A program made the translations under genes and the position numbers. A stretch of DNA of 64,000 nucleotides. Source: Planctomycetaceae bacterium (GTDB lineage Bacteria; Planctomycetota; Planctomycetia; Pirellulales; Pirellulaceae). The stretch covers positions 1-64,000 of the forward strand of contig SXOA01000150.1 of assembly GCA_005778405.1 (NCBI GenBank), read 5' to 3'. This document shows, in pieces, positions 2,001 through 13,331 of this stretch (position 1 is its first letter; the number at the start of each line of letters is the position of its first letter). The notes beneath the pieces are model-generated. The model was not told the DNA's origin, did not search any database, and saw nothing but the letters and a program-made list of their open reading frames with translations.

Positions 2001-3041
2001 CTATTTGACCCGCACCAACTTCATAATGCGCCCCGATACGTTCCAATCCTGCACATACAGATTGCCGTCCTTATCCCAGTAGGATCCGTGAGTGCCGCTG
2101 AAGACCCCCTCAATCCACTGCTCCTGTGGGACGCCAAAGTTCACTCTTTTCGCCGGGTCGGCATTGTGGCCTAGAACGGCGATGATTGTGTTGCTCTTGT
2201 CGAGAATGACGACTCGTCCGTGCAAATCCGGCACCGAGACATAGTCTCCTTGGACCGCGGCGGAGGTTGGCATTCCCAGGCCGGTCACCACCTCCTCAAT
2301 GAAGTTACCCTCGAGGTCATAGTGCAATAGCCGACCCTTGGGCGTGTGGTTGCGGTCGCAAATGAGCAGGCGAGGTGGTTCGTACCGAGTATCGAGTGTC
2401 ATGCCATGGGCGGTGTTGAATTGCTTGAGGTCGTTCCCCTTGGAACCAAAGTGCTTCAAGTATTTGCCGGCCTTATCAAACTTAATAATGTGGTTGCTGG
2501 CATAGCCGTCGGACAGAAAGATGTCGCCATTGGGCGCGATAGTGATCGCCGTGGGGTTGAACTGCTTGAGTTTGAGTCCGGATTCCTCGGGAAAGGGCAA
2601 CTTCAAGACGATCTCGCCACTATGGGCGTTGAATTTGATCCCTTCAGCATTGGCGTTGCGGGCACCGTAAATGAACTCCGCATCACCCTCTGCGCGGATC
2701 TCCATATCATGGATGTTGGAGTACTTGTCTCCCAGATATTCCTTGATCACCTTTCCATCGGGAGAGAAAACGACGACTCCCTTGTTGGCGCTGGTGTAAA
2801 TGTTTCCGGCCTTATCGATCACGACCGCGCCGTGTGTCGGTCCCAGGGCGGAAGTTCCATCCGGGCGCAGTCCCCAGCCGGGCACCGTTTCAAAGGTCAT
2901 GATCCCGCAGCCCATCCTTACCGGCTTGGCATCCTTTTGAGCCAGAGCGGGAAGGGTCAGGCCGAGCGACAACACGAAAGCGAGGCAAGCGGAACTGGTT
3001 TTCACGATCGGGACTCCAGAGTGAATCTTCATATTTGACAA
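2001..3041 (-). CDS. NHL-repeat / six-bladed beta-propeller secreted protein
   Basis: 346-aa ORF with an N-terminal signal peptide. It has repeated motifs of the form 'G..F..P.G.A.D..GN.YV.D', typical of NHL repeats. Confidence 0.5.
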   Translation of the reverse strand: MSNMKIHSGVPIVKTSSACLAFVLSLGLTLPALAQKDAKPVRMGCGIMTFETVPGWGLRPDGTSALGPTHGAVVIDKAGNIYTSANKGVVVFSPDGKVIKEYLGDKYSNIHDMEIRAEGDAEFIYGARNANAEGIKFNAHSGEIVLKLPFPEESGLKLKQFNPTAITIAPNGDIFLSDGYASNHIIKFDKAGKYLKHFGSKGNDLKQFNTAHGMTLDTRYEPPRLLICDRNHTPKGRLLHYDLEGNFIEEVVTGLGMPTSAAVQGDYVSVPDLHGRVVILDKSNTIIAVLGHNADPAKRVNFGVPQEQWIEGVFSGTHGSYWDKDGNLYVQDWNVSGRIMKLVRVK

Positions 3042-3458
3042 AATGCTGGGGTGAGTGGGAATTCGGGGCAGCTTCGAATTCGTTTAAACGGTGGCCCATT
3101 ATCCGGTCGCTAGCGACGAACTACAACCAGGGCAGCGGGTTCACCCTGTCGGCCATCCAGGCCGTCTTGCGAATTGGAAAAATTCCGCAACGGCGCGAAT
3201 AAACAGCGAATTGGGGCATCTTCCAATGGGAACTGGTTTTTTGCGCAACCAGCGAACCTTTCTGGCCCTCAGCCGTCTACATCCTTGAACCTGTCACAAC
3301 AGCACACCCCAATCGCGAAGGACCCGAGAATTCAAATGACCGCCTGGAATTCGAATTACTGCCTGCACAATCGCGAAGGCATCGCCGCCATGGGTACGGC
3401 GAATTGCTCCGCCTATCCGCTGCGCTGGTGACACGGCTCTAATCCTCAAGGGATGCAA

Positions 3459-3488
3459 AGCCCGGTGTCACATACGCCGGGCTTTTTT
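3459..3488 (+). terminator. intrinsic terminator-like hairpin (gcccgg...ccgggc) followed by a T6 run, immediately upstream of the tRNA array
   Basis: GC stem plus a TTTTTT run seen in the sequence. It ends an AT-richer region (3040-3500). Confidence 0.4.
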
Positions 3489-3505
3489 GTGGACTGAAAT
3501 AACGC

Positions 3506-3578
3506 GGCTCGTTCGTTTAGTGGCCTAGGATCCTGCCCTTTCAAGGCGGAGAGATGGGTTCGATTCCCATACGAGCTA
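3506..3578 (+). tRNA. tRNA-Glu (anticodon TTC)
   Basis: Cloverleaf fold by eye: acceptor ggctcgt/acgagct, anticodon loop CTTTCAA, T-arm atggGTTCGATTcccat. Confidence 0.65.
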
Positions 3579-3581
3579 CTT

Positions 3582-3653
3582 GGTAGTCGAGGGCTGGTCG
3601 CCCATCTTCGGCTGATAACCGGGGCGCGCTGAGTTCGATCCTCAGGGCTACCA
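3582..3653 (+). tRNA. tRNA-Ile (anticodon GAT) with an unusually short D-loop
   Basis: Acceptor ggtagtc/ggctacc, anticodon loop CTGATAA, T-arm ctgaGTTCGATCctcag. The D-arm gggc-tggtc-gccc is atypical. Confidence 0.45.
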
Positions 3654-3670
3654 CTTGAAAATTGGAAATC

Positions 3671-3743
3671 GGGATCAAGGTGTTAGCGGCAGCATGCCCG
3701 GCTCTTAACCGGGAAGGTGAGGGTTCGAGCCCCTCGGGTCCCA
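3671..3743 (+). tRNA. tRNA-Lys (anticodon CTT)
   Basis: Anticodon arm cccgg-CTCTTAA-ccggg and T-arm gaggGTTCGAGCccctc. The acceptor has one mismatch at its base. Confidence 0.5.
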
Positions 3744-3777
3744 CTCGCTGTTTGACAATCTGGTTGTGGAATGACGA

Positions 3778-3848
3778 GCGCCCATGATGTAGCGGCAGCC
3801 TGCTGCCTTGCCATGGCGGAAGTGCGGGTTCGACTCCCGCTGGGCGCT
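3778..3848 (+). tRNA. tRNA-Gly (anticodon GCC); D-arm appears truncated
   Basis: Acceptor gcgccca/tgggcgc, anticodon loop TTGCCAT, T-arm gcggGTTCGACTcccgc. Confidence 0.5.
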
Positions 3849-3885
3849 CTGAATTCGTAGCCCGCACACTCCGTGTGTGGGAAAT

Positions 3886-3959
3886 CGGCGTGTGGGAGAA
3901 ATGGGAAGTCCACGTGCTTTGGGAGCACGAAGATGCTGGTTCGAACCCAGCCGCGCCGA
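3886..3959 (+). tRNA. tRNA-Pro (anticodon TGG)
   Basis: Acceptor cggcgtg/cgcgccg, anticodon arm cgtgc-TTTGGGA-gcacg, T-arm gctgGTTCGAACccagc. It resembles the canonical bacterial Pro(UGG) sequence. Confidence 0.7.
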
Positions 3960-3964
3960 CCTTT

Positions 3965-4038
3965 TGTGGTGCCTCCGTGCTGGTACGGTGGAGCGGCTGT
4001 TAACCGCTTCTACGCAGGTTCGATTCCTGCCGCCACAG
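3965..4038 (+). tRNA. tRNA-Asn (anticodon GTT)
   Basis: U1-A72 start as in E. coli tRNA-Asn. Anticodon arm agcgg-CTGTTAA-ccgct, T-arm gcagGTTCGATTcctgc. Confidence 0.6.
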
Positions 4039-4041
4039 CTT

Positions 4042-4127
4042 GGAAGTCAACCGGCTGGATGAGGAGCCTGTCTCGAAAACAGGTGGCGGCACTTCGCCGC
4101 TTGCGAGTTCGAGTCTCGCGGCTTCCG
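4042..4127 (+). tRNA. tRNA-Ser (anticodon CGA) with a long variable arm
   Basis: Anticodon arm cctgt-CTCGAAA-acagg, long variable stem-loop ggcggcacttcgccgc, T-arm gcgaGTTCGAGTctcgc. 86 nt long. Confidence 0.7.
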
Positions 4128-4145
4128 CTTGATCGAAAAACAAAT

Positions 4146-4218
4146 GGTCCCGTGGCCAAGCGGCTAAGGCAGCACTCCTACAAAGTGACGAGCGGTGGTT
4201 CGACTCCATCCGGGACTA
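4146..4218 (+). tRNA. tRNA with anticodon TAC (Val-like), atypical: C at the normally invariant U33 position and a 27-43 mismatch
   Basis: Acceptor ggtcccg/cgggact, D-arm gcc-aagcggctaa-ggc, anticodon loop CCTACAA, T-arm ggtgGTTCGACTccatc. Confidence 0.4.
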
Positions 4219-4257
4219 CTGAACCAATAAACCAAAACCCTATCTATGAAAACAACT

Positions 4258-4332
4258 GTCCTCGTGGAGCAGCCCGGAGTGCTCGCCGCCCTGTCACGGC
4301 GGAGGCCGTCGGTTCAAATCCGATCGGGGACG
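4258..4332 (+). tRNA. tRNA-Asp (anticodon GTC)
   Basis: D-arm gagc...gctc, anticodon arm ccgcc-CTGTCAC-ggcgg, T-arm gtcgGTTCAAATccgat, acceptor gtcctcg/cggggac. Confidence 0.7.
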
Positions 4333-4343
4333 CTGAGACATTT

Positions 4344-4425
4344 GCGTCGGTTGGGCATTGGCAAGCCTCAGTGGCCGTAACCCACCCGCCTTCGGGCTCT
4401 GCAGGTTCAACTCCTGTCCGGCGCA
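4344..4425 (+). tRNA. tRNA-Tyr (anticodon GTA) with a long variable arm; the anticodon loop CCGTAAC has C at the U33 position
   Basis: Acceptor gcgtcgg/ccggcgc, variable stem cccg-cctt-cggg, T-arm gcagGTTCAACTcctgt. Confidence 0.5.
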
Positions 4426-4443
4426 CTTTGATGATTGCGATAA

Positions 4444-4526
4444 GGCCAAGTGATGAAACGGGAGACATGCGACGCTCAGAACGTCGTGCCATTCATGGCG
4501 TGGGAGTTCAACTCTCCCCTTGGCTA
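4444..4526 (+). tRNA. tRNA-Leu (anticodon CAG) with a long variable arm
   Basis: Acceptor ggccaag/cttggct, anticodon arm cgacg-CTCAGAA-cgtcg, variable hairpin ccat-tc-atgg, T-arm gggaGTTCAACTctccc. Confidence 0.7.
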
Positions 4527-4533
4527 CTGAAAT

Positions 4534-4602
4534 TGCGGGTGGGCCAGCGCCCACTCGAGCCTCATAAGCTCGATGAGCCGGGTGCGACCCCCGGACCCGC
4601 TA
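4534..4602 (+). tRNA. tRNA-like with anticodon CAT (Met/fMet/Ile2-like), atypical: T-loop reads TGCGACC (G at the Psi55 position), short D-arm, position 1-72 unpaired
   Basis: Anticodon arm cgagc-CTCATAA-gctcg is clean. The T-arm ccggg-tgcgacc-cccgg and the acceptor pair only over 6 bp. Confidence 0.35.
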
Positions 4603-4606
4603 CTCT

Positions 4607-4677
4607 GGTCTGTAGGTGCTGCGGCCGCACACTGCTTTGGTAGGGCAGGAGCCCGGGTTCGACTCCCGGACGGACCT
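4607..4677 (+). tRNA. tRNA-Thr (anticodon GGT)
   Basis: Acceptor ggtctgt/acggacc, D-arm gtgc-tgcggcc-gcac, anticodon loop TTGGTAG, T-arm ccggGTTCGACTcccgg. Confidence 0.6.
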
Positions 4678-4691
4678 CTCGATATGAATTC

Positions 4692-4763
4692 GGGCCTGCA
4701 TGCCGCTGGAGGCGACTGATCCTTGCAAGATCGGTGTGATGGGTTCAACTCCCATCAGGTCCA
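4692..4763 (+). tRNA. tRNA-Ala (anticodon TGC), with the G3:U70 identity pair
   Basis: Acceptor gggcctg/caggtcc contains the G3-U70 wobble. Anticodon arm tgatc-CTTGCAA-gatcg, T-arm atggGTTCAACTcccat. Confidence 0.7.
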
Positions 4764-4778
4764 CTGAACGACGTACAC

Positions 4779-4850
4779 AGCTCAATGGTGAAACGGAAAT
4801 CATTCCTCGCTTCGAACGAGGAGGTCCGGGTTCGACTCCTGGTTGAGCTG
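4779..4850 (+). tRNA. tRNA-Arg (anticodon TCG)
   Basis: Acceptor agctcaa/ttgagct, anticodon arm cctcg-CTTCGAA-cgagg, T-arm ccggGTTCGACTcctgg. Confidence 0.55.
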
Positions 4851-4861
4851 CTGATTTACAT

Positions 4862-4939
4862 GGTTTCCGTAGTGTAGCGGTCGCTGCACGCCTGGCTGTG
4901 AACCAGGAGGCATGGGTTCGACTCCCATCGGATACCCCA
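4862..4939 (+). tRNA. tRNA-His (anticodon GTG) with encoded G-1, C73 discriminator and an encoded CCA
   Basis: G-1 precedes the acceptor gtttccg. Anticodon arm cctgg-CTGTGAA-ccagg, T-arm atggGTTCGACTcccat, 3' end ...cggatac-C-CCA. Confidence 0.65.
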
Positions 4940-4940
4940 T

Positions 4941-5033
4941 TGGCGAAAGTCGAAATCCGAAATCCAAAATCCGAAACTCGGAATCGAAATGCCCTTTTTC
5001 GGATTTCGTGCTTCGAATTTCGGGTTTCTATTT
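4941..5033. repeat. spacer made of short direct repeats (gaaatcc x3) followed by their inverted complement (ggatttcg... cgaatttcggg); predicted extended hairpin inside the tRNA array
   Basis: Seen directly in the sequence between tRNA-His and tRNA-Trp. There is no convincing cloverleaf. Confidence 0.4.
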
Positions 5034-5103
5034 ACGAATGTGCTCCTGGGAGAGCAGCTAGCCTCCAAAACTGGTCTACGGGGTTCGAATCCTCGCGTTC
5101 GTG
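5034..5103 (+). tRNA. tRNA-Trp (anticodon CCA)
   Basis: A1 start as in E. coli tRNA-Trp. D-arm gctc-ctggga-gagc, anticodon loop CTCCAAA, T-arm cgggGTTCGAATcctcg, acceptor acgaatg/cgttcgt. Confidence 0.5.
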
Positions 5104-5137
5104 CTCAAAGTAGTCCGCTCACTCCGTGGGCGAACAT

Positions 5138-5211
5138 GCCGACGTGGCGCGATTGAGAAAGGCGCCGGCTTCGTAAGCCGGTTCATGCTGGTGCGAATCC
5201 AGTCGTCGGCT
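5138..5211 (+). tRNA. tRNA-Thr (anticodon CGT); T-loop reads TGCGAAT (G at position 55)
   Basis: Acceptor gccgacg/cgtcggc (exact), anticodon arm ccggc-TTCGTAA-gccgg, T-arm gctgg-tgcgaat-ccagt. Confidence 0.5.
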
Positions 5212-5224
5212 CTGTTTGTGGTTT

Positions 5225-5297
5225 GTCCTCGCAGTGTGCCGGATACGCACGCGACCCTGCGAAGGTCGAAGACCAGGTTCAATTCCTGGCGAGGATA
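5225..5297 (+). tRNA. tRNA-Arg with anticodon GCG (uncommon in bacteria, which usually carry ACG)
   Basis: Acceptor gtcctcg/cgaggat, anticodon arm cgacc-CTGCGAA-ggtcg, T-arm ccagGTTCAATTcctgg. Confidence 0.45.
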
Positions 5298-5460
5298 CTG
5301 CGCCAGCAGCACCAGGCTCAAAATCAACAAGCCAAATCCCCCCGCGAGCACCGCTTTCATCCCTACGGCAGCCACCCGGAAGCCAAAAATGAGCACTTTC
5401 ACACTGCTGTTCGCGCCAACGTTGTCAAACGCGACCGGCTGATTTGCGACGATGGGCCGA

Positions 5461-6924
5461 CTAGCCTCCGCAACCGCCGCAGCCCCCTCCACCGCCGCAC
5501 CCTCCGCCGCCTCCACCACAACCTCCTCCGCCCGTCGAACAGCCGCCGCCCCCATTCGCACGCGGCAGCATGGCATAGACCTCGGCCAGCGGGCCGTCTG
5601 CCAATATGCCGGCACCGAACAATCCGATCGTCATCGCCAGCGTAGCGGGAGACATCGCCGCCGTAGCGGACTCCGAGAGTTGTGTCGCGGAAGCATGCTT
5701 TGCCTGCAGCGACTCGAGCGATGCTTGACCGCTGGACGAAAGTCGCGACCGAGCGAGCAGATAGACGAGCGCAGCCACGGCCGTCAAAAGGCAAGCGACT
5801 ATCAGAAACTCAACCGGCCGGCCGCGCGATAGCCCGATCGCAATTTTCGGCAAGCCAAGGAGCAGCGGCGCAGCCATGATGAGGCTTGCCGCCACGCTGC
5901 GAGCCGAAGGAGCGCCCGCTTGCAGAAAGCCTCGCTCGATCAGGCTCTCGTTGATTTCCTGTGCGATTGGCATTCCCGCCTTGGTGAGCGGCTCAATACT
6001 TTCCGCGGGAACGGCCGCGGTCTCGAACAATGCCTGTTCCAGCCGCGGCGAGTTCTTTGGCAACGGTTTGCCTTGCCGAATCGTGCTCGTGCTCCAGGTA
6101 AAGAACCCCCAGCCCTTGTTTTCTGTGACAAGTTGCAGCGTTCCGGCTTGCACCATCGCCGCGAACGCGGCCTGCACGGCCCGCGCTGCACCAGCCGCCA
6201 GACAGGCTACTTCGTAGGGGTCGAGACTCGCGGGTTTCTCGCCAACGGCCCCTTCGTTGGTGGGATTGACCAGCCGAGTTATGAGCGCCAGGACAGCGGC
6301 AATGATGACGAGGAGAATGTACAAACCCAGAAATCGTGGCCCGGTCCAGTCGAGCGGGTTCCACATCCCAGCCCCAAGCGGCAGGCCAACAAGACCCAGC
6401 ACGAGGAGCGGCGAGGAACGGGAAAGCATGAGCGGCCAGCTCGGTCTGGGGATGATCCAATACCGCCGGGTGTTCACACTCACGTGCTGGAGATCCTCGC
6501 CAAATCGTTGACCCGCGGGCGGCCAGATGTCGCCTGGCGGCAGTTGTCCGAAGAGCCGCTCATAACTCGCCAGCGTCTGGTTGTAGAGTTCGATGAATCT
6601 CGTTTGTTCCGCTTCGCCCCCTTTGGTTGGCCCATGATGCAGCGGCTGTTGAAGCACGTTTCGGCAAAGGTTTTCCCAGTACGAGCGGGTGTATGTCAGA
6701 TGCAGATGCCAGGCCTGATCGACTTGCTCGGAGGGAGTGACCACATGGCCCGCGGTGACGGCCAGGAAGAGAAACTTCCGGTACTCGGCAATCACTCGCT
6801 CGGAATAGGCCGCGCTCCAGCCGTTTTCGCGGGCCAGTCGCCGGGTAAACGTCAACTCCGTTGCGGGCTCATCGATTTGGAATGCGATCAACTTTGCCAA
6901 CAGAGTTTGTTGCGTAGCGTTCAT
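5461..6924 (-). CDS. membrane protein with an N-terminal GRDP-like (glycine-rich domain protein, DUF1399-type; ...VDQAWHLHL... motif) domain and a TIGR04222-like TM region, ending in a Gly/Cys-rich tail (GGGGCSTGGGGCGGGGGGCGGGGGCGGCGG)
   Basis: 487-aa ORF with multiple hydrophobic helices. The C-terminal tail is encoded by an imperfect GGC/GCC repeat at 5461-5550. Confidence 0.5.
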   Translation of the reverse strand: MNATQQTLLAKLIAFQIDEPATELTFTRRLARENGWSAAYSERVIAEYRKFLFLAVTAGHVVTPSEQVDQAWHLHLTYTRSYWENLCRNVLQQPLHHGPTKGGEAEQTRFIELYNQTLASYERLFGQLPPGDIWPPAGQRFGEDLQHVSVNTRRYWIIPRPSWPLMLSRSSPLLVLGLVGLPLGAGMWNPLDWTGPRFLGLYILLVIIAAVLALITRLVNPTNEGAVGEKPASLDPYEVACLAAGAARAVQAAFAAMVQAGTLQLVTENKGWGFFTWSTSTIRQGKPLPKNSPRLEQALFETAAVPAESIEPLTKAGMPIAQEINESLIERGFLQAGAPSARSVAASLIMAAPLLLGLPKIAIGLSRGRPVEFLIVACLLTAVAALVYLLARSRLSSSGQASLESLQAKHASATQLSESATAAMSPATLAMTIGLFGAGILADGPLAEVYAMLPRANGGGGCSTGGGGCGGGGGGCGGGGGCGGCGG

Positions 6925-7070: not shown

Positions 7071-7724
7071 ATGACGATTCACGAAAATTTGGCGCGAATC
7101 AAATTGCCTGCGGAGCCGGCGCTGGTCGCGGCGGCAGTGGGGGGTGATCGCGTTGCCCTGGAGCGTCTGCTCCTCGCCCACTACGACCCCTTGGCGCGCC
7201 GGATCGGGGAAAAGCTGCCACCTCGGTTGCGGGCGACGCTGGCCGCCGAAGACATCTTGCAACTCACGTTCCTTCAGGCCTTCCGCGACATCGGGCAATT
7301 CGAGCTGCGGGCGGATGCGACCTTTGGCAATTGGCTGGCGCGGATTGCCGAAAACCGCTTGCACGACGCCATCAAGGCGCACGACTGCACGAAGCACGGC
7401 GGAGATTTGCAAAGAGTCCAGGACGGCGCGGGAAGCGACGGTAGCGTTCTGTCGCTCTGGGACTGGATTGCCGCTGCCGACACTTCACCCGGCAGTATTG
7501 TGGCGCGGGAAGAAGCGCTGCAAGCTTTGCAGGTCGCTTTGGCTTCGCTGCCCAGCGACCAGGGCATGGCGATTCGACTGCAAGTGCTCGAGGGAAAATC
7601 GCTGGCGGAAACTGCCACGGCATTGGGCCGGACTTCCGACGCAATTCGCGGGCTCGTGCATCGCGGCAAAGAGCAACTGCTGGCCGCCATGGGGCGAGCG
7701 TCCAAATGGCTGAAGTCCCAATGA
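7071..7724 (+). CDS. ECF-type RNA polymerase sigma-70 family factor
   Basis: 217 aa with sigma-70 region 2 and region 4 (helix-turn-helix) features. Its stop overlaps the start of the downstream kinase. Confidence 0.7.
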   Translation: MTIHENLARIKLPAEPALVAAAVGGDRVALERLLLAHYDPLARRIGEKLPPRLRATLAAEDILQLTFLQAFRDIGQFELRADATFGNWLARIAENRLHDAIKAHDCTKHGGDLQRVQDGAGSDGSVLSLWDWIAAADTSPGSIVAREEALQALQVALASLPSDQGMAIRLQVLEGKSLAETATALGRTSDAIRGLVHRGKEQLLAAMGRASKWLKSQ

Positions 7725-7731
7725 AACTGCC

Positions 7732-10203
7732 ATGAACGACACACTGCGGAACCTTACCGAAGTCGACCGCGACGCGCAGATATTTCGCGTCGTGGATGAG
7801 GCGCTACAGCGGCGAGCGGGAGGGGAGGAGATTACCGACGACGATCTTTGCCGGGAACATCCCAACCTGCTGCCGGAACTGGCCGCGGAGCTGCGCAAGG
7901 TGCGAGTCATCGCGCGAGCGCGTGAGCAATCCAGACAGCCGGCTGCGGACCGACGCGACCCCGCGAGCGATGAAACGGCTGCTTTCTTACCGATGCGGCC
8001 GCAAGTGCCCCGCCTGTCACGCTCGCTGGATATTCGTTGCCCTCTGTGCCGCGAGCCGCTGGAGATCGCCGCTGATCAGCCGCTGGAGGACATTCCCTGC
8101 CTGTCATGCCACGGCCGGTTCAGCCTGGCCGGTGACGATCCGGGCCTGAAGGATCAACAGCCCGTCACTCGGATCGCCCATTTCGAGTTGCTACAACGGC
8201 TGGGAATGGGGAGCTTCGGCACCGTGTGGAAAGCCCACGATGTGAAACTCGACCGCACGATCGCCCTGAAGATTCCCCGCCGCGGGCATTTGAGCTCCAG
8301 TCAAGTGGAGAAGTTCTTGCATGAAGCCCGCGTCGCCGCGAAGCTGCGGCATCCACACATCGTCAGCGTCCACGAGATTGGCCGCGACGACGACAGCATC
8401 TACATTGTCAGCGACCTCGTGGAAGGGGTCTCGCTGGAAAAATTCAAGGACGCGAAACGGCTGACGCAGCGAGAAGCGGCCCAGTTGCTCGTCACCGTGT
8501 GTGACGCGCTGCACTTCGCCCATCAGGCGGGAATCGTGCATCGTGACCTCAAGCCGGGCAACATCCTGATCGACGCCCAAGGAGTGCCGCACATCACCGA
8601 CTTTGGCCTGGCCAAGCGCGGGAACGAGGAAGTCGAGATCACGATGCAGGGAGAGATCCTGGGGACGCCGGCGTACATGTCGCCGGAACAGGCCCGCGGC
8701 GAGTCGCACCTGGCTGACCGCCGCACCGACGTTTATGCGATGGGAGTCATGTTCTTCGAGCTCCTTACCGATTGTCTTCCCTTCCGCGGCAACGTGCCGG
8801 CCCTCACGCAGCACGCGATCCACACCGAGCCGCCCAGTCCGCGCCGGCTCAATGCGACCATTTCGCGCGATCTGGAAACCATCTGCCTGAAATGCCTGGA
8901 GAAGGATCCCGTGCGCCGTTACGAATCGGCCGATGACCTGGCTGCCGAACTGCGCCGTTTTCTGGCCGGGGACGAAATCCGAGCGCGGCCGATTTCGCGG
9001 AGCGAACGCCTCTGGCGCTGGTGCCGGAAGAACCCACGGATTCCCACGCTCTCCGCGGCGCTGCTCGGCGTCGTGCTGATTGCCTATGCCGGCGCCTGGG
9101 TCTGGTTTGAGGCCCACATCGACCGCACGCGGCAGAGGCTCCAGGAACAGGCCCACGAGAACCTTCAGTTCACAGGTGGGGCGATTACCACAGCCGCCGG
9201 GCACGACTTCGACAAGTATTTTCAGCAGGTTAAGGACGCGGCTCGCGATCCCGTTCTGGCCAAACAACTGCGGGAGATGCAAGTGGTTCAGCAGAAATAT
9301 GCGCCGCTCAACGCGGTCGTCAAAAACGGGCCGCTTCAGGCGGAATTGCTCGACGAAAAGCTCCGGCAGCCGCTCAAGAAGTGGACCGAGAGCTTGCCGC
9401 GGGGGCAGTCAGTGTTCTCCTGGTTTGTCATGCAACCGGACGGGTTGCAGGTCGCGCGATATCCAGAGGTGTCGGGAGGCGAGAATACCATCGGCGAGAA
9501 CTATTCGTGGCGAGCCTATTTTCATGGCGGCCCGGAAGACAAACCGCTCGATTGGCGGGCCATTCCTGGACAGCATCTGACCGGGACCCAATTGTCGCCA
9601 CCCTTCTTTACTCATCACACTTTTGAATGGGTCTTGGTCGTCTCGACCCCAATCCCCGATCCGCAAGCCTCGGACGCCCCGGCACTCGGGGTCCTGGGAC
9701 TCATGCTGAAGCTGGGGTCGTTCGTGGAACTGCCCGGCAACGCGCCTCATGTCTCGCGGACCGAGGATACCGCCGGCGCTGAAAGCCGCTTTGCCGTGCT
9801 GATCGATTCGCGTCCCGCTCACCAGGGGAAAATCCTCCAGCATCCTCGGTACAGCGATCTAGAGAGTGATCAAGCTGCTCGTAGAAAGCTGCTCGACAGC
9901 TCGCTTGAGCCGGCGTTGCGAGTGCAGGGAGACTGGACCTGGCAGGACGACTACCTCGATCCCCTGGAGGAGCAACATTCCGGCGCGGACCCGCAGCAAT
10001 GGCTGGCCAGCCGTTTGCCAGTGAAAATCAGCGGGACCGACAGCGGCCTGGATGTCATCGTTCAGGAAAGCTACGACCAGACGATCAAGCAACCCCTGGC
10101 CGAGCTACGCCGCGGCCTGATTCTCCTGAGCTTGATCACGTTTGGACTCGCCGCGGTCGTGATCGTACCGCTGTGGGGGATCATTCTGCGATTAGTGCGA
10201 TGA
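7732..10203 (+). CDS. serine/threonine protein kinase with a C-terminal TM anchor and a large extracytoplasmic domain (ECF-sigma-associated)
   Basis: Hanks kinase motifs HRDLKPGNILID, DFGLAK and GTPAYMSPE. Hydrophobic segments near residue ~430 and at the C-terminus. Confidence 0.8.
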   Translation: MNDTLRNLTEVDRDAQIFRVVDEALQRRAGGEEITDDDLCREHPNLLPELAAELRKVRVIARAREQSRQPAADRRDPASDETAAFLPMRPQVPRLSRSLDIRCPLCREPLEIAADQPLEDIPCLSCHGRFSLAGDDPGLKDQQPVTRIAHFELLQRLGMGSFGTVWKAHDVKLDRTIALKIPRRGHLSSSQVEKFLHEARVAAKLRHPHIVSVHEIGRDDDSIYIVSDLVEGVSLEKFKDAKRLTQREAAQLLVTVCDALHFAHQAGIVHRDLKPGNILIDAQGVPHITDFGLAKRGNEEVEITMQGEILGTPAYMSPEQARGESHLADRRTDVYAMGVMFFELLTDCLPFRGNVPALTQHAIHTEPPSPRRLNATISRDLETICLKCLEKDPVRRYESADDLAAELRRFLAGDEIRARPISRSERLWRWCRKNPRIPTLSAALLGVVLIAYAGAWVWFEAHIDRTRQRLQEQAHENLQFTGGAITTAAGHDFDKYFQQVKDAARDPVLAKQLREMQVVQQKYAPLNAVVKNGPLQAELLDEKLRQPLKKWTESLPRGQSVFSWFVMQPDGLQVARYPEVSGGENTIGENYSWRAYFHGGPEDKPLDWRAIPGQHLTGTQLSPPFFTHHTFEWVLVVSTPIPDPQASDAPALGVLGLMLKLGSFVELPGNAPHVSRTEDTAGAESRFAVLIDSRPAHQGKILQHPRYSDLESDQAARRKLLDSSLEPALRVQGDWTWQDDYLDPLEEQHSGADPQQWLASRLPVKISGTDSGLDVIVQESYDQTIKQPLAELRRGLILLSLITFGLAAVVIVPLWGIILRLVR

Positions 10204-10453
10204 TGGGCCATGGCTTGAGCGAATGGTTCAGTGAATCGCGCTATCCGACCACGAAAGAATTTCAGCGAACCATTCTTCGCTGTTTGCATCTACCCCTTGC
10301 AGAGCCAAAGATGCTCGCGAAGGAGCCGGCGAGTCCAAGCTCCGCACGCTTGCGCACATGACATGGGGATAGTCCCCGCAAGAGCCTTCTCCAAGGCCCA
10401 GTGTCACGAGTGAAACCGGGATTTTTTTGTGCGCTCAAGACGACAGAGTGTAT

Positions 10454-10525
10454 GACGCTGGAGCCAGACGGCACGGCCGCTGCCTGCAAAGCAGCTCCAA
10501 GTGGGTTCGACTCCCACCGGCGTCT
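10454..10525 (+). tRNA. tRNA-Cys (anticodon GCA)
   Basis: Acceptor gacgctg/cggcgtc, anticodon arm gctgc-CTGCAAA-gcagc, T-arm gtggGTTCGACTcccac. Confidence 0.7.
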
Positions 10526-10630
10526 CTTGCAAGCAAGCGATGTTTGTCGCCAGGCCAGCGGCGCACCGAGCCTCGATTTCGAGTCTGCTCGGCGTGTTCC
10601 GAACATGGGGTCTAACGAAGGCGGCAGACA

Positions 10631-10703
10631 GCGAGGTTAGCTCAGTGGAAAGAGCACCAGGCTACTAACCTGGATGTCGCGGGTTCGACTCCCGTACCAT
10701 CAC
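10631..10703 (+). pseudogene. tRNA-like element / probable pseudo-tRNA: good D, anticodon and T arms, but anticodon ACT and an acceptor stem that cannot close
   Basis: D-arm gctc-agtggaaa-gagc, anticodon arm ccagg-CTACTAA-cctgg, T-arm gcggGTTCGACTcccgt. The 5' acceptor gcgaggt is not complementary to the 3' accatca. Confidence 0.4.
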
Positions 10704-11105
10704 CGCAGGCGTGAAAAACCTGCTCGACCGGGCGCGCAAGCGTCTACCAAGAGGCCCGCGGGAGGCGGGCATTCGCTGGATCAGCTGTCGTCCATTGTGA
10801 CTCGTTCACACGGACGGCAGCAGCACTAGAAACATGCCTTGAAAGGCGCACATCCCGCTTACCACCGCTGCCACTAATTGATTTGTCGGCGCTCACGAGC
10901 GACGCGATTGGTTTCGGCCACTCGCTAACTCGCCAGCCAGGCATTTCAAAGTGACGGCGAAGTCTGCTCAAAGCGCACTTCCGCATTTTTCCGTGTGATT
11001 CGTGAACGTCCCGCCCCCCAACGGCGTCTCTTCGTCTTCAACACAGTTGTTTCATCGCGCGCCAACCGCGAGCCCAGTTGGCAAGATGAAAGGAGCCCAG
11101 CTCCA

Positions 11106-12212
11106 ATGTTCCTGTTCAAGCATTTCAAGATCCGCACCCACGAAATGGGCCTCTACTTCCGCGACGGCGAGTTCAAGGGACTGCTCCGCGCCGGCAAGCA
11201 CTGGCTCTTCGACCCGCTCGGCAAGGTCCGTGTTGAAGTCGTATCGCAGCGCGCGCCGTGGCTCGTGCACGAGCAGCTCGACGAAATCGTCAAGTCGGGC
11301 GCTCTGTCGGGCCGCGCCGTCGTCCTGGACCTCAAGGACTACGAGCGGGGCCTGGTCTGGGTCGACGGCCGCTTCAGCCACATTTTGCCGAAGGGTCTGT
11401 TCGCTTACTGGACTGGCCGCCGCGACGTACAGATCGAGATCATCGATGCGCGAATCGTGCGGTTCGAGCACAAGGACGCCAAGGTGATCATGCGGTCGGC
11501 ACAGGCACAGCTTGCGCTCGACATTTGCAACGTCGCCCGACACTGCGTCGGCGCGCTGTTCGTCGATGGCGAGTTCATCGAAGTTCTCGCTCCAGGCCAG
11601 TACGCGTTCTGGAAGGGACTTGTGGACGCCCGCGTCGTCGAGCTCGACCTGCGAGAAACGACCGCGGACGTGAGCGGCCAGGAGCTGATGACTGCCGACA
11701 AGGTGACGCTGCGGATGAACGCCCTGGCGACTTACCGCATCGTCGATGCCAAGAAGGCGGTCTGCGCGACCGACGACGTTCGCCAGGCGCTCTACCGCGA
11801 AACGCAGATGGCTCTGCGGGCCGTGGTCGGCGCGCACGAGCTCGACGCCTTCCTGGCCAACAAGGATGCGGTGGCCCTGGAGATCGAGCAGGCCGTTCGC
11901 CGCCGGGCCGGCGAACTGGGTCTGGAGATCGTGTCGGTCGGCATCCGTGACGTGATCCTGCCGGGCGAGATGAAGGACCTGATGAACAAGGTCACGGAAG
12001 CCAAGAAGGCAGCCGAGGCCAACCTCATCGTCCGCCGCGAGGAAACGGCTGCCATGCGCAGCCAAGCCAACACGGCCAAGTTGCTGGCCGACAACCCGAC
12101 CCTGATGCGCCTCCGAGAGCTGGAGGTTCTGGAAAAGGTCGTCGCCAACGGCAAGCTGAAGGTAGTCCTCGGCGAAAAGGGCCTGGCCGAACGGGTCGTG
12201 AACCTGCTCTAG
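11106..12212 (+). CDS. SPFH/band-7 (slipin/stomatin-like) domain protein
   Basis: RBS aaaggag upstream of ATG 11106. The SPFH-like core is followed by a coiled-coil C-terminus (..KKAAEANLIVRREETAAMRSQANTAKLLADN..). Confidence 0.65.
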   Translation: MFLFKHFKIRTHEMGLYFRDGEFKGLLRAGKHWLFDPLGKVRVEVVSQRAPWLVHEQLDEIVKSGALSGRAVVLDLKDYERGLVWVDGRFSHILPKGLFAYWTGRRDVQIEIIDARIVRFEHKDAKVIMRSAQAQLALDICNVARHCVGALFVDGEFIEVLAPGQYAFWKGLVDARVVELDLRETTADVSGQELMTADKVTLRMNALATYRIVDAKKAVCATDDVRQALYRETQMALRAVVGAHELDAFLANKDAVALEIEQAVRRRAGELGLEIVSVGIRDVILPGEMKDLMNKVTEAKKAAEANLIVRREETAAMRSQANTAKLLADNPTLMRLRELEVLEKVVANGKLKVVLGEKGLAERVVNLL

Positions 12213-12425
12213 CAGCAGTGCCCTGGGATTGAATAGGAAGGCAGTTGGACTGTCGGTCAGGGAGTCGTCACCCAGGTTCTCGAAAGGAGCAATCCTGCCG
12301 CCCTCATGCCGATTTGGCGTGAGGGCGGTTTTTTGATACAAGATGGATGGGCACTTTGTCTTCAGTGCAACTTCCGACGATTCGTTGGGGATGCCCCTAG
12401 ACTCGTTGGCAACCAGCTTTTCTCC

Positions 12426-13331
12426 ATGGATGCAGAACTCTCCCAAGCTGTTGCTGCCATTCGGACGGAGTGGGCTTCCATTCCCACGGTCGGCGTCATC
12501 CTGGGAACGGGCCTCGGCGGCTTGACCAGCGCGATGCACGTGGAAGCGGAGATTCCCTACCATCGCATCCCGTACTTTCCCCGCTCCACCGCCATGGCCC
12601 ACAAGGGAGCCCTTCACTGCGGCGAAATGGCCGGCGTAAAAGTCCTCACCATGGCTGGCCGCTGCCATCTGTATGAAGGCTATTCGGTCGCCGACTTGCG
12701 GCTTCCCATCCGCGTGATGCACACCCTCGGCGTCCGCACGCTCATCATCACCAACGCCGCCGGCGGCTTGAACGCGCGGTTTGAGCCGGGAGACGTGATG
12801 GTGATCGAGGACCATGTGAACTTGATGGGATTTTCCGCGTGCCCGAGCGGGTTGACGGTGGATTTGGCCGGGGCGGCAGGAGACGGAGAGAAGGAGAGAG
12901 GGAGAGACGGGGAGAAGGACAGATTCACTGAATCTTCTCTCTCTGTCTCTCCTTCTCTCTGTCTCTCCATCTCTCCCCAATCCGCCTACGACTCTGCTCT
13001 CGCGGACGCCGCCCTCTCCGCCGCTCGCCACGGCAACTTCCCCTGTCAGCGCGGCGTGTACGTCGGCGTGAAAGGCCCCAACTACGAAACACGGGCTGAA
13101 TATCGGGCATTCCGCCGCTTCGGGGATGTGGTCGGCATGAGTACGATTCCGGAAGTCCTCGCCGCACGGTCCCTCGGAATGCGCGTCCTCGGCCTTTCCA
13201 CCGTCACCAACGTCGCTCGCCCCGATGCCCCGCAAATCGTCACCTCGGACGAAGTCGTGGAAGTCGCCAGCATCGCTCAGCCCAAGCTGCGACAGATCAT
13301 TCTGGGGGTGCTCGGTTTTTTTTCGTGGTGA
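12426..13331 (+). CDS. punA: purine nucleoside phosphorylase (PNP/PunA family) carrying a ~25-aa low-complexity loop insertion
   Basis: Conserved PNP blocks (GVILGTGLGG, HCGEMAGVKVLTMAGRCHLYEG, LIITNAAGGLN, GVKGPNYETRAEYRAFRRFGDVVGMSTIPEV). The start is inferred at the internal Met. Confidence 0.75.
   Translation: MDAELSQAVAAIRTEWASIPTVGVILGTGLGGLTSAMHVEAEIPYHRIPYFPRSTAMAHKGALHCGEMAGVKVLTMAGRCHLYEGYSVADLRLPIRVMHTLGVRTLIITNAAGGLNARFEPGDVMVIEDHVNLMGFSACPSGLTVDLAGAAGDGEKERGRDGEKDRFTESSLSVSPSLCLSISPQSAYDSALADAALSAARHGNFPCQRGVYVGVKGPNYETRAEYRAFRRFGDVVGMSTIPEVLAARSLGMRVLGLSTVTNVARPDAPQIVTSDEVVEVASIAQPKLRQIILGVLGFFSW
12871..12975. repeat. GA-rich run followed by its CT-rich near-complement (imperfect palindrome), in-frame inside the PNP gene
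   Basis: ggagacggagagaaggagagagggagagacgggg ... ctctctgtctctccttctctctgtctctccatctctcc, with a central gattcactgaatc. Confidence 0.5.

Follow-up and report, generated by a model that had tools for sequence, protein, structure and literature searches.

Uridine 33, pseudouridine 55 (Psi55), guanosine 18 and the U8-A14 pair of transfer RNAs (tRNAs) are among the most conserved bases in biology, and a cluster of tRNA genes in which several members lack them raises the question of whether such genes are failing copies or working tRNAs of an unusual kind. The cluster lies at positions 3506-5298 of the forward strand of contig SXOA01000150.1 from a Planctomycetaceae bacterium (assembly GCA_005778405.1), of which we analyzed a stretch of 64,000 nucleotides (nt), positions 1 to 64,000, referred to here as the window. 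An earlier note on this DNA, made by eye from the letters, had placed these genes in an accessory-type array with non-canonical members, some of which it thought could be pseudo-tRNAs. Our analyses indicated, with a probability that we put at roughly 60%, that the cluster is a horizontally acquired accessory array of the type known as an L-array or tRNA array unit, residing in a Pirellulaceae chromosome and consisting of 19 genes plus a displaced tRNA-Cys gene, whose specialized tRNAs are probably functional.

The tRNA genes were called with ARAGORN at its default and at a slightly relaxed threshold, and Rfam covariance models were run independently with Infernal (the gathering threshold of the tRNA model, RF00005, being 29 bits). 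In the interval 3506-5298, default ARAGORN called 17 + strand tRNA genes and the relaxed threshold 19; the two additional genes, a tRNA-His(GTG) at 4863-4936 and a long-armed tRNA of the Ser type at 4042-4126, were also found by Rfam. The gene order is Glu, Ile, Lys, Gly, Pro, Asn, Ser, Val, Asp, Tyr, Leu, Met, Thr(GGT), Ala, Arg(TCG), His, Trp, Thr(CGT) and Arg(GCG). This compact block serves 17 amino acids (all except Phe, Gln and Cys) in 1.79 kb, a density of 10.6 genes per kb, with every gene on the + strand and spacers of 1-97 nt; with the displaced Cys gene included there are 20 genes in 7.02 kb, or 2.85 per kb. The members are not periodic copies, as the top pairwise identity within the array is 67%. 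Folding gave a four-arm cloverleaf for all 20 tRNAs, and expected identity elements were seen (G3·U70 in Ala, G-1/C73 in His, and long variable arms in Ser, Leu and Tyr). The discriminator bases also suit the identity sets of their isotypes. The array of the earlier note is therefore present, with deviations at the positions it had named.

U33 was found in 18 of the 20 tRNAs, with C33 only in tRNA-Val(TAC) (4146-4219, +; Rfam 53.1 bits), whose anticodon loop is CCTACAA (C32, C33), and in the long-armed tRNA-Tyr(GTA) (4344-4426, +), whose loop is CCGTAAC; the former has a G27·A43 and the latter an A27·C43 mismatch. A canonical T54-Psi55-C56 T-loop together with D-loop G18-G19 was likewise present in 18 of 20, the exceptions being tRNA-Met(CAT) (4534-4603, +; 70 nt) and tRNA-Thr(CGT) (5138-5212, +; 43.9 bits), whose T-loops TGCGACC and TGCGAAT carry G55. 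The tRNA-Met has, in addition, an unpaired U1·U72, a six-base-pair anticodon stem, a D arm shrunk to a four-base-pair stem and a 4-nt loop (CAGC), and no 8/9 linker, and its minimum-free-energy fold is a clean cloverleaf. ARAGORN and Infernal place all these bases identically, so that a register error of one position, which the earlier note had feared, was ruled out as their source; its C33 and 27-43 mismatches, its two TGCGA T-loops and its open 1-72 pair all reappeared in the automated folds. Reading CCUACAA as an amber suppressor or a shifted anticodon was rejected, as the loop is 7 nt long and no stop codon would be read by the Tyr loop.

The resemblance to an initiator that had been seen in the CAT tRNA was only partly borne out. 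The unpaired 1-72 position is common to bacterial initiator tRNA-fMet and this tRNA, and is conserved in a second array described below, although the mismatch is U·U and not C·A. No other initiator trait supports the echo: the bottom anticodon-stem pairs (29-41, 30-40 and 31-39) are A-U, G-C and C-G, giving one of the three initiator G-C pairs, a set of three that the earlier note had also seen to be lacking, and the tRNA departs further from tRNA-fMet in its reduced D arm, its lack of a standard 11-24 pair and its G55.

Evidence that the odd bases are maintained came from a homologous array. A scan of one genome per species from 185,579 species, using a pattern of the Val-C33 and Tyr-C33 arms at the right spacing, identified a sole true relative, in the Pirellulaceae metagenome-assembled genome (MAG) ant_bin.39 (GenBank JBKJNY01; hereafter L011). 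Its gene order agrees with that of the window, running Pro-Asn-Ser-Val-Asp-Tyr-Leu-Met-Thr-Ala-Arg-His-Trp-Thr(CGT)-Cys, the contig ending upstream of Pro. The 15 shared tRNAs are 95.2% identical (1072/1126), with Val and Arg(TCG) the same in both genomes, in contrast to 55% (147/269) for the alignable spacers; five of the L011 spacers hold palindromic insertions of 70-100 nt. The substitution rate was 2.3% in stems and 6.4% at unpaired positions. Among the ten altered pairs, Trp 5-68 shows a double compensatory change (A-U to G-C), four stay paired as G-U, three go from mismatch to pair, and two are broken. L011 retains the C33 of Val and Tyr, the G55 of Met and Thr(CGT), and the U1·U72 of Met, which argues that they did not arise by chance, and the miniature D arm of Met is kept as well. 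The Tyr 27-43 mismatch is not kept (L011 has a G-C pair there), and L011 has an oddity of its own in the Trp T-loop, TCCGAAT.

The comparison also bears on the last genes of the array. A tRNA-Cys(GCA) at 10454-10526 (+), which has G8, is identical at 71 of 72 positions to the L011 Cys gene, which comes immediately after Thr(CGT); it thus belongs to the same ancestral array, and in the window a stretch of about 5 kb, with Arg(GCG) and three protein genes in it, interrupts that array. Arg(GCG) (5225-5298, +), flagged originally for an anticodon that most bacteria replace with ACG, does exist as a gene with an intact cloverleaf, a normal loop (CTGCGAA), C8-G14, and the Arg identity bases A20, C35 and A73. 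It is, even so, the weakest member of the array, being absent from L011 and having no Rfam match. We rejected its being a recent duplicate: it has its 5' acceptor strand in common with Asp, but the two are only 64% identical overall.

Where a conserved base is missing, its tertiary partner tends to be altered too. Canonically, G18 makes contact with Psi55, and G19 forms a pair with C56. A D-loop GG is missing from just two of the 20 tRNAs, those with G55, and both carry AG instead (D loops CAGC in Met, and GAGAAA in Thr(CGT), the latter AAGAAA in L011), an association of 2/2 versus 0/18 within the window (p = 0.005). Among 132 independent tRNAs from phage arrays it recurred at 2/3 versus 7/129 (p = 0.012), the two phage G55 tRNAs with AG being a Cys and a Leu of one array (L032), the Leu having AAAC-AG-AAGA as compared with AAAC-GG-GAGA in the window Leu. 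Nine genes (Ile, Lys, Asn, Ser, Met, Thr(GGT), Ala, Arg(GCG) and Cys) have a base other than U at position 8, and non-U8 is invariably accompanied by non-A14, the 8-14 combinations being C8-G14 (Ser, Ala, Arg(GCG)), A8-U14 (Lys, Thr(GGT)), G8-U14 (Ile), C8-U14 (Asn) and G8-G14 (Cys); A14 is present in nine of the ten regular U8 tRNAs (p = 2e-4). The odd bases are in this respect structurally coherent; the 18-55 and 8-14 associations are correlations between sequences, and the contacts are proposed. As a separate observation, several tRNAs in four phage arrays (L030, L031, L033 and L039) have no D-loop GG and have T-loops of TTGGAGT or TTTGAGT/TTTGAAT. Their D loops have GC or GA, which looks as though C19-G56 or A19-U56 had taken the place of the usual 19-56 pair.

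These data bear directly on whether decay into pseudo-tRNAs, the silent and functionless remnant of a past transfer, accounts for the flagged members or for the array as a whole. Features that could be read in this way are not lacking. Eight of the 19 genes (Ile, Asn, Ser, Tyr, Met, Ala, Trp and Arg(GCG)) scored below 29 bits or had no RF00005 match (the top score in the array being 58.6 bits, for His), stems in Val, Tyr, Trp, Lys and His contain mismatches, Arg(GCG) has no counterpart in L011, and a terminator-like hairpin lies directly upstream of the array. In the Anabaena array, 3 of 26 genes are pseudogenes (PMC8421152). The window also holds a true pseudo-tRNA (10633-10704, +), with a broken acceptor stem and the loop CUACUAA, which gave 50.4 bits in Rfam over model positions 5-66 only. 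Its D and T arms are canonical (U8, A14, GG, TTCGA), it has no counterpart in L011, and its loop is one base off CUACGAA, the loop of Arg(ACG). Against decay stand the far greater conservation of the tRNAs than of their spacers, with Val and Arg(TCG) unchanged between genomes, the conservation of the deviant bases themselves, the co-variation at 18-55 and 8-14, the full cloverleaves with expected identity bases in 20 of 20, and the lack of any recent copies among the members. We consider decay very improbable, and the rule-breaking bases (C33, G55 with A18, and the swapped 8-14 pairs) are probably selected variants. The pseudo-tRNA reading of the four flagged genes was consequently not supported, given the deviant bases kept in L011, the mostly pair-preserving changes in stems, the identity bases, the co-variation of G55 with the D loop, and the recurrence of the C33 Val arm in phage arrays.

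The phage counterparts were identified in the IMG/VR database. The first match to the Val C33 arm was a low-G+C phage contig (L008) with a tRNA array of paired isoacceptors, in which a canonical Val(UAC) (loop TTTACAA, 72.6 bits) adjoins a C33 copy (loop CCTACAA). A looser pattern returned 12 loci, eight of which have a tRNA-Val(TAC) with the loop CCTACAA inside phage arrays of 4 to 25 tRNA genes, on contigs of up to 434 kb; the other four comprise one Val-like tRNA that ARAGORN did not call and three that look like chance matches, as expected of background. When nine such Val tRNAs were aligned, the acceptor, D and T stems were found to differ, with compensatory changes in 15 of 20 pairs. The anticodon arm common to all nine is CCACU-CCUACAA-AGUGG, of which 13 bases were fixed by the search pattern and the two outer stem pairs were not. 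C33 also occurs in Pro, Glu and Gly of one phage array (L039), and G33 in Tyr of another (L036). Together with the C33 Val arms, these indicated that the flagged features are recurrent in phage tRNA arrays. Phage tRNAs with anticodon-loop changes that block anticodon nucleases have been reported (PMC10264068), and this recurrence is consistent with such a role.

Two observations on the phage sequences can be noted separately. In L008 (IMGVR_UViG_3300042261_002391) the array spans 7721-13180 and has two copies each of Val, Glu, Asp, Ala and Gln; both Asp copies have U37 (loops CTGTCTC and CTGTCTA), and one Glu and one Gln have long extra arms. A BLAST search of the phage C33 Val tRNA against isolate phages gave only an unrelated tRNA-Ile(TAT) in Arthrobacter phages, whose Val is canonical, and this candidate was set aside.

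Such parallels raise the alternative that the array is phage cargo lodged in the chromosome, serving a phage during infection and doing nothing for the cell. The C33 Val arm, G55 T-loops and non-U8 all occur in phage arrays, and gene order is kept between the two Pirellulaceae genomes while the flanks are not, as cargo would have it. There are, however, no phage genes in the window or in the 3.7 kb beside the L011 array, four patterns specific to the array gave 0 matches in IMG/VR, and BLAST of the array against isolate phages and plasmids found generic single-tRNA similarity only. The G+C content and codon fit of the array, moreover, match those of the host. Phage cargo is thus a poor explanation, to which we assign little weight.

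The surroundings of the array are those of a resident chromosome. The window is a section of a metagenome contig of 145 kb, which its flanking proteins assign to Pirellulaceae, near Anatilimnocola, and the remainder is that of an ordinary planctomycete chromosome (PSCyt/PSD1/DUF1501 pairs, YidC, PurB, RNase III, LpxB and CsrA), with G+C content uniform throughout, array included. A prophage or an integrative and conjugative element as context was rejected, since the window has no integrase, transposase or phage families. The array itself is found in few places. At four loci with homologues of the downstream TIGR04222 protein (L004-L007) the trio of TIGR04222, ECF-sigma and kinase genes is kept, with other genes at the array site; beside homologues of the highly conserved upstream beta-propeller protein (L022-L024, including two complete Anatilimnocola genomes) there was no array and no tRNA. 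The L011 array is followed by genes for an inositol oxygenase, a cNMP-binding protein and RlmN, a context unlike that of the window, and no array lies beside relatives of this inositol oxygenase (L025-L028). In all, the array is absent beside orthologous flanking genes at 11 loci of relatives, and relatives whose flanking proteins are 65-93% identical have almost no tRNAs in about 190 kb of DNA. This patchy, context-free distribution is the pattern that two published surveys report for long tRNA arrays, and it implies horizontal spread.

The same comparison addresses whether the array could instead be the housekeeping tRNA set of the lineage, or a large part of it, with the odd bases being quirks of all Pirellulaceae. 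Its anticodons suit host codon usage, the 64-kb window contains no duplicate isoacceptors, and no mobile-element genes are present. A stand-alone tRNA-Ser(GGA) in another Pirellulaceae MAG (L005, 13883-13965, -) also has the N73-C-T trailer of the array genes, and is itself unusual, with A8, a weak D stem of 2-3 base pairs and a low Rfam score (only a 32-bit match, to the tRNA-Sec model). Yet relatives with closely similar flanks do without the array, the only other copy sits in a different gene context, and the paired Val/Tyr C33 signature occurs in one genome among the 185,579 species scanned. The array also has no Phe, Gln or initiator-type tRNA and lacks most isoacceptors, so that other tRNA genes must exist elsewhere, and PMC8421152 regards such long arrays as supernumerary. 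A housekeeping role is accordingly unlikely in our estimation, although we rate it a little above the two alternatives already discussed.

Features upstream of the array and within it suggested how its expression may be controlled. A hairpin with a 12-base-pair stem followed by six U (3457-3490, +) ends 16 nt before the first tRNA; it has a folding free energy (dG) of -24.1 kcal/mol (z -3.4), and 0 of 200 shuffled sequences folded as well. It looks like an intrinsic terminator and, according to the folding, may gate expression of the array. No sigma-70-like promoter was predicted within 2900-5600. A transcript entering the array must pass the terminator-like hairpin, which suggests default silence or conditional read-through. 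A second, long imperfect hairpin with a T-run (4959-5028, +; dG -28.2, z -1.96) occupies the His-Trp spacer, and L011 has a stronger one at the same place (dG -45.2, z -3.3). This predicted structure may be an internal terminator or a processing site, and its presence with a T-run in both arrays means that the array may be two transcription units.

Some further observations concern the leader and spacers. A 31-codon open reading frame (MTAWNSNYCLHNREGIAAMGTANCSAYPLRW; 3338-3433, +), called as a gene in a sister contig of the window, ends 24 nt before the leader hairpin, and the two together look like a leader peptide with an attenuator, judged from their arrangement. The region before Cys (10340-10453) aligns weakly and collinearly with the leader (3400-3505), sharing GCCC[G/A]GTGTCAC ... 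CCGGG.TTTTTTGTG, with a poor fold of its own (z -0.2), and may have arisen as a copy of that leader. A family of spacer hairpins, (A)GTAG[C/T]C + CGC.CAC-TCC-GTG.GCG, lies between tRNAs of both arrays (z -4.2 and -2.4), at 3861-3881 and 5113-5135 in the window and at 1-21, ~1805-1855 and ~1945-2000 in L011. These hairpins and the palindromic insertions of L011 could be processing signals or miniature mobile repeats.

At the 3' ends of all 20 genes the discriminator base is followed by C, usually then T (N73-C-T), and a full CCA is encoded by His only; because every gene except His encodes C74 only, CCA must be finished after transcription. The N73-C-T trailer was also seen on the stand-alone tRNA-Ser of L005, and C74 in many genes of phage arrays. 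As measured on the genes of the window, the anticodons of the array fit the most-used codon in 12 of the 15 multi-codon families covered (CUG, GGC, CGC, ACC/ACG, AAG, GAC, AAC, CAC, AUC, UAC and UGC, and for Glu a near tie of GAA with GAG). In the Ala, Pro and Val boxes, by contrast, the U34 tRNAs are cognate to the rarest codon, and for Ser(CGA) the codon UCG comes second, after AGC.

Among known systems, the array most resembles the L-array, exemplified by the 26-gene trn operon of Anabaena sp. PCC 7120 (Santamaria-Gomez et al. 2021, PMC8421152; Puerto-Galan & Vioque 2012). According to PMC8421152, L-arrays spread horizontally, Planctomycetes are among the phyla bearing them, and the Anabaena array is silent until translation or ribosome stress, with 23 of its 26 tRNAs charged in vivo. 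Common to both are a long, non-periodic series of closely spaced genes on one strand serving most amino acids, a patchy distribution among relatives, and an upstream signal compatible with default silence. The signals differ, the Anabaena array being regulated by direct repeats in its promoter whereas here a terminator-like hairpin has that putative role, and, unlike in the Anabaena-type array so described, no homing endonuclease or rtcB gene is nearby. The searched passages of PMC8421152 make no mention of conserved C33, G55/A18 or 8-14 swaps.

The related definition of a tRNA array unit requires at least 20 tRNA genes per region at a density of at least 2 per kb, and again includes Planctomycetes among the phyla (Tran et al. 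2016, PMC4758250). High density (10.6 per kb in the compact block), enrichment of common isoacceptors, and low structural similarity to the arrays of other phyla, which PMC4758250 reads as independent acquisition, are all found here. The compact block has 19 genes against the 20 of the definition, however, and reaches 20, in 7.0 kb, only if the displaced Cys is counted; Arg(GCG) also stands in place of the Arg(ACG) of the bacterial core.

The odd bases themselves have partial precedents. Nuclease-escaping phage tRNAs (van den Berg et al. 2023, PMC10264068; Azam et al. 2024, PMC11555353) likewise have altered loop bases beside an unchanged anticodon, and phage arrays have this very C33 Val(UAC) arm, in one case with a canonical copy next to it. 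The tRNAs studied here differ in being chromosomal and free of phage context, and in that their changes extend to the elbow of T-loop and D-loop and to the 8-14 pair. U33 has been called invariant in elongator tRNAs, with eukaryotic initiators and a Candida tRNA-Ser as the exceptions (PMC5041475). The eukaryotic initiator tRNA-Met (C33) and Candida tRNA-Ser(CAG) (G33) show that natural tRNAs can work without U33 (Grosjean & Westhof 2016, PMC5041475), but these are eukaryotic, and initiators or one special decoder, whereas C33 is found here in bacterial-type elongators for Val and Tyr. The type of array is thus already known, and what sets this example apart is its unusually clear set of conserved and compensated departures from universal positions, which it has in common with phage arrays.

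Based on these observations, we propose the following working of an acquired accessory array. The genes would be transcribed as one or two polycistronic precursors by read-through of the leader hairpin, and by default the array would probably be silent or conditional, as is that of Anabaena. RNase P and a 3' nuclease would free the tRNAs, and CCA would be completed after transcription. The resulting set would fit the common codons, with the U34 tRNAs predicted to read the Ala, Pro and Val boxes by wobble. The rule-breaking bases, selected and co-varying with their tertiary partners, would presumably have a function, and the likeliest benefit is a spare pool of tRNAs that are poor substrates for enzymes recognizing the canonical anticodon loop or T-loop. 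Candidates for the enzymes evaded are tRNA-cleaving toxins and defence nucleases, and such a pool would sustain protein synthesis during an attack on the normal tRNAs or under translational stress.

Several points weigh against this reading. That the array is supernumerary to a dispersed housekeeping set of tRNAs is an assumption. A phage origin is not shown, as the window has no phage genes and the scans of viral sequences with array-specific patterns (the Met, Thr(CGT), Tyr and Arg(TCG) arms in IMG/VR) returned 0 matches; nor were integrase or transposase families found among the genes of the 64-kb window. A single homologous array was found, and since it is 95% identical, the evidence for co-variation within the family is thin, amounting to one double compensatory change. 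The phage loci were chosen by a pattern demanding the C33 arm, and the sample therefore gives no frequency of C33 in phages. Changing U33 to C left cleavage by the K. lactis gamma-toxin, a well-studied anticodon nuclease, unchanged (PMC2275089), so that C33 offers no general protection. Finally, the oddities at position 8 may extend to dispersed Pirellulaceae tRNAs and so perhaps are not specific to the array, because the stand-alone tRNA-Ser(GGA) of L005 has A8 and a low score; it is the sole stand-alone Pirellulaceae tRNA compared, and the comparisons of C33 and G55 cover the two arrays and the phage tRNAs.

A broader possibility, which we regard as speculative and would give clearly less than an even chance, is that these genes belong to a widespread, undescribed class of bacterial and phage elongator tRNAs with compensated rule-breaking (the fixed C32-C33 Val(UAC) arm, A18·G55 elbows and swapped 8-14 pairs). 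Mobile arrays would maintain such tRNAs as spares that are nuclease-proof or independent of modification, and the Pirellulaceae array, with its terminator-type leader in front, would have been domesticated as a translation reserve that stress induces. If elongator tRNAs without such bases are indeed under selection, they would show how far the tRNA core can vary and still work, and they would offer concrete candidates for examining whether survival of tRNA-targeting toxins is what accessory and phage arrays are for. A regulatory terminator-type leader would be a second, different wiring of an L-array into the stress response. Should the array be silent cargo, it would be an ordinary example of a known genomic oddity.

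The remaining genes of the array, all on the + strand, are as follows. tRNA-Glu(TTC) (3506-3579) was called by ARAGORN and scored 49 bits in Rfam. tRNA-Ile(GAT) (3582-3654) has G8-U14, a short D loop and no Rfam tRNA match, and tRNA-Lys(CTT) (3671-3744; 42.9 bits) has A8-U14 and an A7·G66 mismatch. These are followed by tRNA-Gly(GCC) (3778-3849; ARAGORN, and 52.6 bits in Rfam) and tRNA-Pro(TGG) (3886-3961; 52.5 bits), the latter identical to its L011 counterpart at 74 of 75 positions. Next are tRNA-Asn(GTT) (3965-4039), which has C8-U14, is under the Rfam tRNA threshold and matches L011 at 70 of 74 positions, and tRNA-Ser(CGA) (4041-4128), with a long variable arm, C8-G14 and 83 of 87 positions identical in L011. 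tRNA-Asp(GTC) (4258-4333; ARAGORN; 53.8 bits) is also a gene of L011, and tRNA-Leu(CAG) (4444-4527) was called by ARAGORN with 46.5 bits in Rfam. The flagged Met and Thr(CGT) genes are identical to those of L011 at 61 of 69 and 71 of 74 positions. tRNA-Thr(GGT) (4607-4678; 42.7 bits) has A8-U14, and tRNA-Ala(TGC) (4692-4764) has G3·U70, C8-G14 and no Rfam tRNA match. tRNA-Arg(TCG) (4779-4851; 56.2 bits), the gene unchanged in L011, precedes tRNA-His(GTG) (4862-4939; 58.6 bits), which has G-1, C73, an encoded CCA and the loop CUGUGAA and is the last gene before the internal hairpin. tRNA-Trp(CCA) (5034-5104; 25.9 bits) has a one-nt 8/9 linker and a C31·A39 mismatch.

Some products of the searches were set aside. 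Four of the five matches of the genome scan were not tRNAs, and the eight matches of a metagenome scan with the Val-Tyr double pattern included none with tRNAs. Across these scans the two-arm pattern (CTCCTACAAAG, gap, GGCCGTAACC) matched 12 contigs without tRNAs (L009, L010 and L012-L021). In eight of the 12, which come from metagenomes and from MAGs labelled Flavobacteriales, Chitinophagaceae and Spirochaetia, the match spans an identical 199 nt, and this is probably one conserved gene that contains both words by chance. The sister contig is near-identical to the window, the sole difference being a 15-nt indel in a repeat at 5461-5560 (-), which encodes the C-terminal Gly/Cys-rich repeat (GGGGCGGGG...) of the TIGR04222 protein, of 487 versus 492 amino acids.

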